A stretch of 64,000 nt of DNA, taken from IMG/VR virus record IMGVR_UViG_3300046463_000164. One strand, given 5' to 3'. The translations under genes and the position numbers were made by a program. The notes beneath the pieces were generated by a model, which made no database searches, was not told the origin of the DNA, and saw nothing but the letters and a program-made list of their open reading frames with translations. This document shows, one piece after another, positions 3,624 to 56,297 of this stretch. Source of the stretch: a virus. Positions within the stretch are counted from its first letter, which is position 1. Every line of letters starts with the position of its first letter.

Positions 3624-4037
3624 ATGTCTGAGCTTGTAAAGATCAAGTTGACCAAAGAAAATGCGCCGGGTCAATTTGCGATTATTCAGGATCGAAACCG
3701 TGAAATTGCATCTGCGGTCCAAAAGCATCTATTCCATGAGTTTGATGCGGTTTGGGCATTTGGTGGACCCCTCGTAAAATACCTGGAAGAGGAAGTGTTG
3801 TATGTCAGTCCGTCATCCGATGGAGGCTATGTATTGGCTTATAGCACTTTGGATTACTACAACACCGGAGATCGGCGAGAACGCTTTCCAGAAATGTCGA
3901 TTGAGGTAGAGGCGGTATATACCGTGTCGATATACAACAATGTTCGCGCGGTGAAGATCGGAGGTAAGATGTATAACGAATCTGATATCATCCAGATTCT
4001 GAAATCCAACCCGCTCACTATTCCGGAGATTGCGTAA
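3624..4037 (+). CDS. Hypothetical protein
   Basis: ORF; AAGGAAG RBS supports ATG at 3624 (alternative start 3585). Confidence 0.6.
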   Translation: MSELVKIKLTKENAPGQFAIIQDRNREIASAVQKHLFHEFDAVWAFGGPLVKYLEEEVLYVSPSSDGGYVLAYSTLDYYNTGDRRERFPEMSIEVEAVYTVSIYNNVRAVKIGGKMYNESDIIQILKSNPLTIPEIA

Positions 4038-55330: not shown

Positions 55331-55579
55331 GCGAATTTTATGTAATTATTTTTCCCATCTATCGATCAAATCAAGAGCACTATAGCCCAATATGATAGAG
55401 ACTATCAGGCCGATGAATATTCCAAGAGGCCACCAGTTTGATGTATAACCGGATAGCCCCAATACGCCTAAGTATGCCATTAAGAAATTGAACATTGTTA
55501 AAGAGCAGGGGTGGGTTTCGTCGTCTAGTCTATACTAGGATTCATGAACCGTAAAGGAAAATCTTTCATAGAATAGGGC

Positions 55580-55608
55580 TTTACTTTTTACATACTAGCG
55601 GGTATAAT
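55580..55608 (+). promoter_or_regulatory. Early promoter driving an ORF-less region
   Basis: TTTACT-N17-TATAAT, opposite to all flanking genes. Confidence 0.8.
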
Positions 55609-55609
55609 A

Positions 55610-55926
55610 GCGGGTTGTAGTGGTCGGTATACAGACGGCAGCGCTACATAGTTGTATGGTCTACTGTGTATCGGACTAGACCAAACCCGCAAACTAGGCT
55701 TAGGCTGGCGTAACCAAGGGTGTCCGACAGATCAGGTTATTGATCTGCGTAAGTTGGTGGCTATTGAGAGGGATAACTCTAACTCTCAACCTTGATCGGC
55801 TCCGTATATTGGAACGATAGGATAATGGTTCTGTGCCTCTTAATTGAGGCATGGGCCAACTTATCCTTTCACTCACCGTGCTTGGGGTTAATAGAGAAAC
55901 CCCTTAGACGTTCCTCTAAGGGGTTC
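55610..55926 (+). ncRNA. Putative multi-branched structured non-coding RNA (~300 nt)
   Basis: Consensus promoter, nested helices with G-U pairs on the plus strand, 3' hairpin, no ORF of 60 aa or more. Confidence 0.65.
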
Positions 55927-55937
55927 TAGGAGATAGG

Positions 55938-56297
55938 TTAGATAGCCCTAGCCGTCTGCGATAGCTCGTGACGTAGCGCCTCTACCCGTACTAGATTACG
56001 CTCGATGATACGGAAGTTCTCTTTACGTTCGGCTTTCTGATCGTCCGAAATACCAAACATAATCTCCATCATATCCAATATTGCATTGGCCTGAGAGTGG
56101 TAGATAACTGACTCCGCGTAATGGATCTTGGCATCTTTCAACTGCCGGGAATTCAGATGATCTTCAAACTGTTCTTGATGGACGTAGGCGTTGACCTTCA
56201 GTTCATCATATCTGGCTTGAATAACCTCTTGAAGACTACCAATCATATTGGTGTTCATTTGAATCTCCTTAATCAGAATATCGTTCGATCCGATCAA
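55938..56297 (-). CDS. Hypothetical protein
   Basis: ORF; AAGGAG RBS supports start at MNTNM (56258). Confidence 0.6.
   Translation of the reverse strand: MIGSNDILIKEIQMNTNMIGSLQEVIQARYDELKVNAYVHQEQFEDHLNSRQLKDAKIHYAESVIYHSQANAILDMMEIMFGISDDQKAERKENFRIIERNLVRVEALRHELSQTARAI

Follow-up and report, generated by a model that had tools for sequence, protein, structure and literature searches.

A predicted promoter-driven structured RNA gene in a phage genome, probably an enlarged and divergent relative of the Betaproteobacteria-1 RNA (RF02932)

The window analysed here, a 64,000-nt stretch of viral DNA (IMG/VR record IMGVR_UViG_3300046463_000164), contains a gap of 440 bp without a sizeable ORF between two minus-strand genes (55346-55495 and 55938-56297). 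The initial annotation had proposed that a TTTACT-N17-TATAAT promoter fires from this gap, against the direction of its neighbours, into ORF-free sequence, and the sequence features behind that description were confirmed. The promoter occupies 55580-55608 of the plus strand, both neighbours are minus-strand genes, and the gap ORFs of 47, 45, 58 and 34 aa are not kept in an orthologue with 75% identity. The pattern T[AGT][GT]ACT-N17-TA[GT]AAT occurred at nine sites in the window, compared with 0.12 expected (nine sites were reached in 0 of 100 shuffles), so TTTACT-N17-TATAAT belongs to the phage's own promoter class. The nine sites start at 2785, 4934, 11314, 42948, 44522, 45401, 52656, 55580 and 60393; across them (2785-60421) the spacer length and both hexamers are strictly kept, and the same class was found upstream of RNA copies in related contigs. 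The 5' end of the RNA is probably near 55613-55616. A 49-aa ORF (55346-55495, minus strand) sits between a DUF2786 gene and the RNA promoter, and among ORFs of ≥60 aa none was found at the matching position of the orthologous region. No relatives of the flanking 119-aa protein were found in viral contigs. The promoter and the predicted parts of the RNA are as follows.

55580-55608 (+): promoter, with the -35 element TTTACT at 55580-85, a 17-nt spacer and the -10 element TATAAT at 55603-08
55613-55930 (+): putative whole RNA gene, ~315 nt from promoter to terminal hairpin, placed by CM hits and covariation
55616-55648 (+): P1 hairpin, outer stem 55616-22/55642-48 enclosing the conserved UGGUCGG-N7-ACGGCAGCG
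55638-55667 (+): predicted pseudoknot of GCAG (55638-41) with CUGU (55664-67), joining the two most conserved motifs
55658-55682 (+): P2 hairpin, stem 55658-63/55677-82 with ACUGUGUAUCGGAC in the loop
55671-55727 (+): long-range helices PKa (55671-76/55722-27) and PKb (55685-88/55718-21), with a small hairpin (55697-55706) inside
55713-55758 (+): helix ACCAA (55713-17)/UUGGU (55754-58), the second predicted pseudoknot, which crosses PKa/PKb
55728-47 (+): H4 hairpin, enclosed by the helix 55713-17/55754-58
55764-55789 (+): H5 hairpin, stem 55764-70/55783-89
55798-55813 (+): GGCUCC (55798-55803) followed by R1, GUAUAUUGGA, with its core UUGG at 55809-12
55820-55866 (+): H6 long hairpin, conserved UGGUUC/GGGCCA in its middle
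55873-55889 (+): UCACC (55873-77) followed by R2, GUGCUUGGGGUU, with its core UUGG at 55882-85
55897-55926 (+): terminal hairpin, with compensatory changes in the orthologue

The absence of a tmRNA, RNase P or group I intron signature, stated from the sequence at the outset, was confirmed: ARAGORN found no tmRNA or tRNA-like RNA at the site, and Rfam gave nothing at gathering scores. At permissive thresholds, Rfam gave two weak matches to the 5' third of the RNA. Apart from RF02932, the Rfam matches below gathering scores were at chance level; IMES-3 (RF02036) was rejected as one of these (24.8 bits versus a cut-off of 55), and its outer stem would need bases upstream of the likely start and clash with PKb. 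The model of RF02932 (Betaproteobacteria-1) matched 55613-55721 on the plus strand with 22.5 bits (E 0.054; gathering cut-off 49.4). This match is weak, although collinear and full-length. P1 carries the uGGuCGG...ACggCAGCg of RF02932 at 55616-55648, within a flanking stem that covaries, and the second RF02932 hairpin with its CUGuG loop has a counterpart at 55658-55682 (ACUGUG at 55663-68). The order UGGUCGG...ACGGCAGCG in P1, ACUGUG in the loop of the next hairpin and then GGGU(G) is common to both.

A motif scan of IMG/VR returned more than 120 loci, about half of which were chance matches in GC-rich coding sequence. Forty-nine distinct sequences also carried features absent from the search pattern, namely a covarying stem around the motif, an invariant GGCUCC, a hairpin and YCACC. 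GGCUCC sits 70 nt further on in the short form and 120-140 nt further on in the long form. In a scan of bacterial genomes, copies were found in Caballeronia, Methylocystis, Kordiimonas, Rubrivivax, Roseomonas, Glomeribacter and others, with six matches in one Methylocystis genome; a sample of 150 further Burkholderiales genomes, searched with stricter filters, gave no match. The short forms scored 76-108 bits with RF02932. This model spans no more than the first ~120 nt of them and misses both the long forms and the subfamily of the window. L052, L005, L114, L170, L177 and other short forms have a conserved 3' domain of 80-100 nt outside the RF02932 model, in the order GGCUCC, repeat, hairpin, YCACC, repeat. 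A covariance model of the 5' domain, made from 43 phage and prophage members with the subfamily of the window excluded (CM R2; CM R1 and CM R2 are models, not the repeats) scored 39.6 bits at 55608-55702 (E 5.6e-12), a score that partly reflects the search pattern, since the seeds were gathered with a pattern derived from the window. The window also has the 3' features of the superfamily, GGCUCC at 55798-55803, a hairpin at 55820-66 and UCACC at 55873-77, none of which was in the search pattern.

We consider 55613-55930 (+) to be a stand-alone ncRNA gene of ~315 nt and a divergent, enlarged member of an RF02932-related superfamily, with a probability of about 0.7. Neither "orphan" nor "undescribed", the terms first applied to the RNA, can be kept, as it appears to be a divergent member of a large family with more than 60 phage and prophage loci whose short forms are Rfam RF02932. 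The superfamily has at least three size forms (short, long and large-phage). The Rfam model ends at ~120 nt and lacks GGCUCC, R1, the hairpin, YCACC and R2; the Betaproteobacteria-1 motif is the 5' part of a larger RNA. The RNA of the window differs further in being ~100 nt longer than the short forms, in a rearranged central domain with two predicted extra pseudoknot helices, and in its occurrence as two to three promoter-bearing paralogues in large phages, not in prophages of Betaproteobacteria. The RF02932 family itself reaches beyond Betaproteobacteria, for example into Methylocystis, Kordiimonas and Roseomonas, and the wider family is spread over phages and prophages well beyond that class. 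Betaproteobacteria-1 was described as a candidate sRNA without an assigned function (Weinberg et al. 2017, PMC5737381), and the motif is not discussed in the main text of that paper. No functional work on the Betaproteobacteria-1 RNA was found in the literature searched.

The closest relatives of the RNA were few. In viral scans, the window's variant of the motif was shared by only three viral contigs, and scans of metagenomes and viral sequences for further subfamily members returned the same three. CM R1 scored 145 bits at the RNA gene as its sole match, and the CM search found no paralogues elsewhere in the 64-kb window. The related contigs, of 117-171 kb, carry a syntenic orthologue and five paralogues, with two to three copies per genome, and most subfamily copies visibly have the same type of promoter. 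One of these contigs, IMGVR_UViG_3300046501_000132, is complete (170,684 bp, CheckV 100%) and contains three RNA copies (L279, L152 and L280); a second, of 116,826 bp, contains two. The 170,684-bp contig encodes an NrdC.10-like protein 80% identical to that of the window. The syntenic orthologue lies 1.5 kb from the NrdC.10-like gene and is 75% identical to the window RNA, with the same flanking genes, TAGACT-N17-TATAAT at the equivalent place and a terminal hairpin maintained via compensatory changes. TTTACT-N17-TATAAT promoters also precede the paralogues L280 and L285, each of which is followed by a clean hairpin-plus-U terminator. The proposal of a phage ncRNA with its own promoter was upheld, since the syntenic orthologue and the paralogues have kept the promoter, the fold and the terminator hairpin. 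The contigs show that phages of the window's type carry two to three predicted paralogous copies of the RNA. Neither the window copy nor two of the relatives had a match, by DNA similarity, among 50,697 isolated phages.

Folding better than shuffled sequence had been named as a check of the RNA, and this was observed, with z-scores of -3.55 on the plus strand and -3.96 on the minus strand; the strands were not told apart. Since both strands fold better than shuffles, folding energy alone says little. In a seven-sequence alignment, the proposed structure left 89.7% of the cells paired, compared with 73.3% in shuffles, and pair changes on both sides numbered 42 versus 21 (a level reached in 0 of 500 shuffles). 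When the helix partners were slid against each other, pairing in this alignment dropped to 36-46%. Many compensatory changes were found in P1 across sets of 7, 34 and 43 sequences. The four pairs of the GCAG:CUGU helix were 100% paired in the seven sequences, as GCAG:CUGU, GUAG:CUAU or GUGG:CCAC, with matching changes in one Caballeronia copy. P2 had double changes at three of six pairs, with 76% of cells paired. PKa, PKb and the small hairpin were 100% paired in all seven sequences (five compensatory columns), all five pairs of the helix 55713-17/55754-58 covaried (100% paired), and H5 showed changes on both sides at all seven pairs (100% paired). The base of H6 was 83% paired and its tip was variable in length. 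GGCUCC was invariant across all aligned members. Some covariation was also seen between R2 and 55664-70, a tentative pairing.

The supported helices and GCAG:CUGU together point to a double pseudoknot. The predicted core consists of P1, P2, GCAG:CUGU, PKa/PKb and 55713-17:55754-58 and is followed by three hairpins. Many G-U pairs of the covarying structure fit the plus strand only and place the RNA on that strand, as the initial annotation had argued. The helices drawn in that annotation fared unevenly. Its hairpins 55728-34/55741-47 and 55764-70/55783-89 are supported by covariation, and its final hairpin (55897-55926) is kept by compensatory changes in the orthologue. Its long hairpin, 55819-55867, holds at the base and in the middle but varies at the tip. 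The remaining three helices, all long-range, were no better supported than shuffled sequence and showed no covariation: 55625-34/55664-73 is incompatible with P1, which is found throughout the family, whereas in place of 55714-22/55874-85 and 55724-27/55796-99, 55713-17 pairs with 55754-58 and 55722-27 with 55671-76, both perfectly in 7/7 sequences. The terminal hairpin is likely a two-way terminator common to the RNA and the convergent gene 55938-56297 (minus strand).

A direct repeat is found in the 3' part of the family. At least 26 distinct members repeat a stretch of 8-12 nt, which stands directly after GGCUCC(G/A) (R1) and again directly after YCACC(A) (R2), for example as GAGUCAAACU, AAAAGCUAUUAG or CCGGCAUG. 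Like GGCUCC and YCACC, the repeat had no place in the pattern used for searching. The repeated sequence is member-specific and changes in concert among close relatives. R1 and R2 are separated by 52-54 nt in short forms, by 72-74 nt in copies of the Caballeronia type and by 79-96 nt in long forms. In the window, only the 4-nt core UUGG is repeated; the cores of R1 and R2 agree in six of the seven subfamily sequences (UUGG, UGAG, CGAG twice, CUGG and UGGG), and the orthologue has a one-base difference between them (CUGG/CAGG). In the general family, R1/R2 had no complement in the RNA itself (G-U pairs allowed), in the surrounding locus (up to 14 kb) or in a phage genome of 34 kb that is 98% complete. 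Pairing of R1 with the CUGUG region was no better than in shuffles. Judging from the alignment, R1 of the short forms may occupy a closed hairpin loop. The fold is closed by a helix, GUGGG:YYCAC in the general family, and R2 comes after this helix. In a minority of members, 8 of 51, R2 has a pairing partner just downstream (z below -2). The repeat is missing from L220, and L292 lacks GGCUCC and YCACC. In L067 (8350-8385) and L105, R2 (CCGGCAUG...) forms the 5' side of a hairpin that is nearly a perfect palindrome, and includes the likely AUG of the next gene, without a Shine-Dalgarno sequence upstream. In the Caballeronia-type L234 (5014-5300), the sequence diverges from that of its relatives inside the 3' hairpin module, after ...GAGGCUCGAA, with loss of YCACC and the second repeat; the break may mark the end of a prophage or a site of recombination within the RNA gene.

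The genomic neighbourhood of the family was dominated by replication functions among the annotated neighbours. DNA primase or replication-initiation/primosomal proteins were encoded immediately upstream in 8 of 28 cases, and in other members a primase/helicase, an O-like initiator or RNase H was encoded downstream. No protein neighbour was shared across the subgroups in an all-against-all BLAST of the neighbours within 3.5 kb. Most copies lie between same-strand genes with the next start 1-100 nt on; in most relatives, the next gene begins tens of nucleotides after R2, often fewer than 60. Unlike these operonic relatives, the large-phage copies are self-contained units. Readings as a retron, a DRT2-like system, an omega-RNA or a bridge RNA were dropped because no reverse transcriptase, TnpB/IscB or IS110 recombinase was found among the annotated neighbours. 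A split primase gene or intron was also rejected, as the missing half of the primase is not encoded downstream of the short forms.

As to function, we tentatively favour a conformational switch in which the conserved core would act in cis on its 3' flank; this reading is possible rather than probable. It is preferred because the CUGUG region has competing partners, R2 lies at the boundary to the next gene or terminator, and R2 can pair with the terminal hairpin in the window. The partners of CUGUG are GCAG in P1, R2 in the subfamily of the window and YYCAC in the general family. The core would display two short member-specific copies, R1 after GGCUCC and R2 after YCACC at the 3' edge of the fold, and the choice of partner by the CUGUG region and R2 would decide the downstream outcome. 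In the window, GGGGUU of R2 (55884-89) would pair with AACCCC (55898-55903) in the 5' arm of the terminal hairpin. Transcription could then read through, in antisense orientation to the minus-strand genes nearby. A single-sequence fold does pair the G-run of R2 with CCCC at 55900-55903, but covariation lends no support to R2-to-terminator pairing in the window. Additionally, the downstream genes are mutually unrelated, unlike those of a classical riboswitch, and a simple three-part switch does not explain the repeat, as no complement of R1/R2 exists in the general family. In this the RNA also differs from the immunity RNAs of phages P1/P7 (c4) and P4 (CI). Those are cut from operon transcripts and have two directly repeated targets, with the repeats complementary to a small RNA between them; the Rfam C4 model did not match.

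Stand-alone copies with promoter and terminator, which count against a cis-acting switch, fit a trans-acting RNA equally well. Such an RNA would be a scaffold or decoy binding a phage or host protein, for instance a dimer reading two identical tags, or a replication or defence protein. We regard this as rather unlikely, even though promoter-to-terminator units in two to three diverged copies per genome and strongly conserved unpaired nucleotides would suit it. The RNA is also common to all of L032, L058 and L152, whose flanking genes have no homologues in the window. However, no neighbouring protein gene is conserved at BLAST level, and the tag varies from member to member, a variation that would be incompatible with a conserved host protein. 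Among large and elaborate phage or prophage ncRNAs, often independently transcribed, GOLLD (RF01998) and ROOL (RF03087) are comparable, and neither had a sequence or model match to the window RNA. GOLLD and ROOL are roughly 500-800 nt long, compared with 200-330 nt for the family described here, which in contrast adjoins replication genes, not tRNA genes, and carries the R1/R2 repeat.

Two further readings rest on the repeat. In one, R1 and R2 would be functional 'addresses', with R1, held by GGCUCC, having the same sequence as that just beyond the 3' edge; we think this improbable. Such a self-addressed RNA would exploit this identity to act on its own flank; it could be a large ribozyme that cuts or joins at the junctions of CC with the repeats, or could seed an R-loop at the template strand of R2 and so prime or mark the replication of phage DNA. 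The other, equally a long shot, is a large self-processing ribozyme that would cleave, or cleave and rejoin, at the CC/R1 and CC/R2 junctions and thereby set free or splice out either the 3' hairpin module or the mRNA that follows. Invariant nucleotides within a complex pseudoknotted core are in line with catalysis, as are the shared context of both sites (helix, CC, purine, same sequence) and the position between cistrons in phage operons, like that of many small self-cleaving ribozymes. A ribozyme is opposed by the lack of similarity to Rfam ribozyme families, by the members without the repeat (L220) or without GGCUCC and YCACC (L292), and by the subfamily of the window, in which only 4-5 nt are repeated.

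The initial annotation had also raised an origin primer RNA. A persistent RNA-DNA hybrid at the 3' end would then prime phage DNA synthesis; R1, being the non-template sequence at R2, would pair with the template strand there. ColE1 RNA II and the phage T4 oriF/oriG transcripts mark RNA-primed, R-loop origins; in ColE1, the hybrid near the origin forms with the help of a segment located upstream in RNA II. The RNA of the window resembles them as a promoter-driven structured transcript near replication functions with an upstream segment that could pair with template DNA at the 3' end; it differs in being multi-copy, in the gene that usually follows directly and in having no homology to them. 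A DNA partner would explain why R1 equals R2 without an RNA partner, the promoter in the window is opposed to its neighbours, and relatives adjoin genes for DNA primase, DnaT-like or O-like initiators, primase/helicase and RNase H, but early genes are often replication genes anyway. With two to three copies per large phage genome, six matches in one bacterial genome and a gene directly after the RNA in most relatives, a primer role is quite doubtful. The GC-skew profile has no turn at 55-56 kb, and no AT-rich unwinding element or iteron array was noted in the sequence inspected. That there is no RNA gene, and that the gap instead holds small protein genes or a DNA element (iterons, a single-strand origin or a packaging site), is hardly credible: gap ORFs of 34-58 aa exist and both strands fold better than shuffles, but the ORFs are not conserved in the orthologue, length variation falls in hairpin tips, the compensatory changes with many G-U pairs are strand-specific and the promoter is conserved.

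The R1/R2 pair could not be matched to any RNA mechanism so far described. Should the repeats mark sites of cleavage, joining or DNA pairing, a new RNA mechanism in phage expression or replication would be at hand; if they do not, the RNA would represent one more large phage RNA family. The address reading, if true, would amount to a new kind of RNA device that addresses itself and occurs widely in phages. Concrete starting points for experiments are offered by the double pseudoknot, which covariation backs, and by the concertedly evolving repeats; phages of about 170 kb reach two to three promoter-bearing copies. As the gene order around the RNA is conserved, IMGVR_UViG_3300046501_000132 could serve as an annotation reference for the whole window. 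On a 49-kb viral contig, L005 has a tRNA gene at 3858-3928 (Rfam, 52.9 bits), ~2 kb upstream of its RNA.
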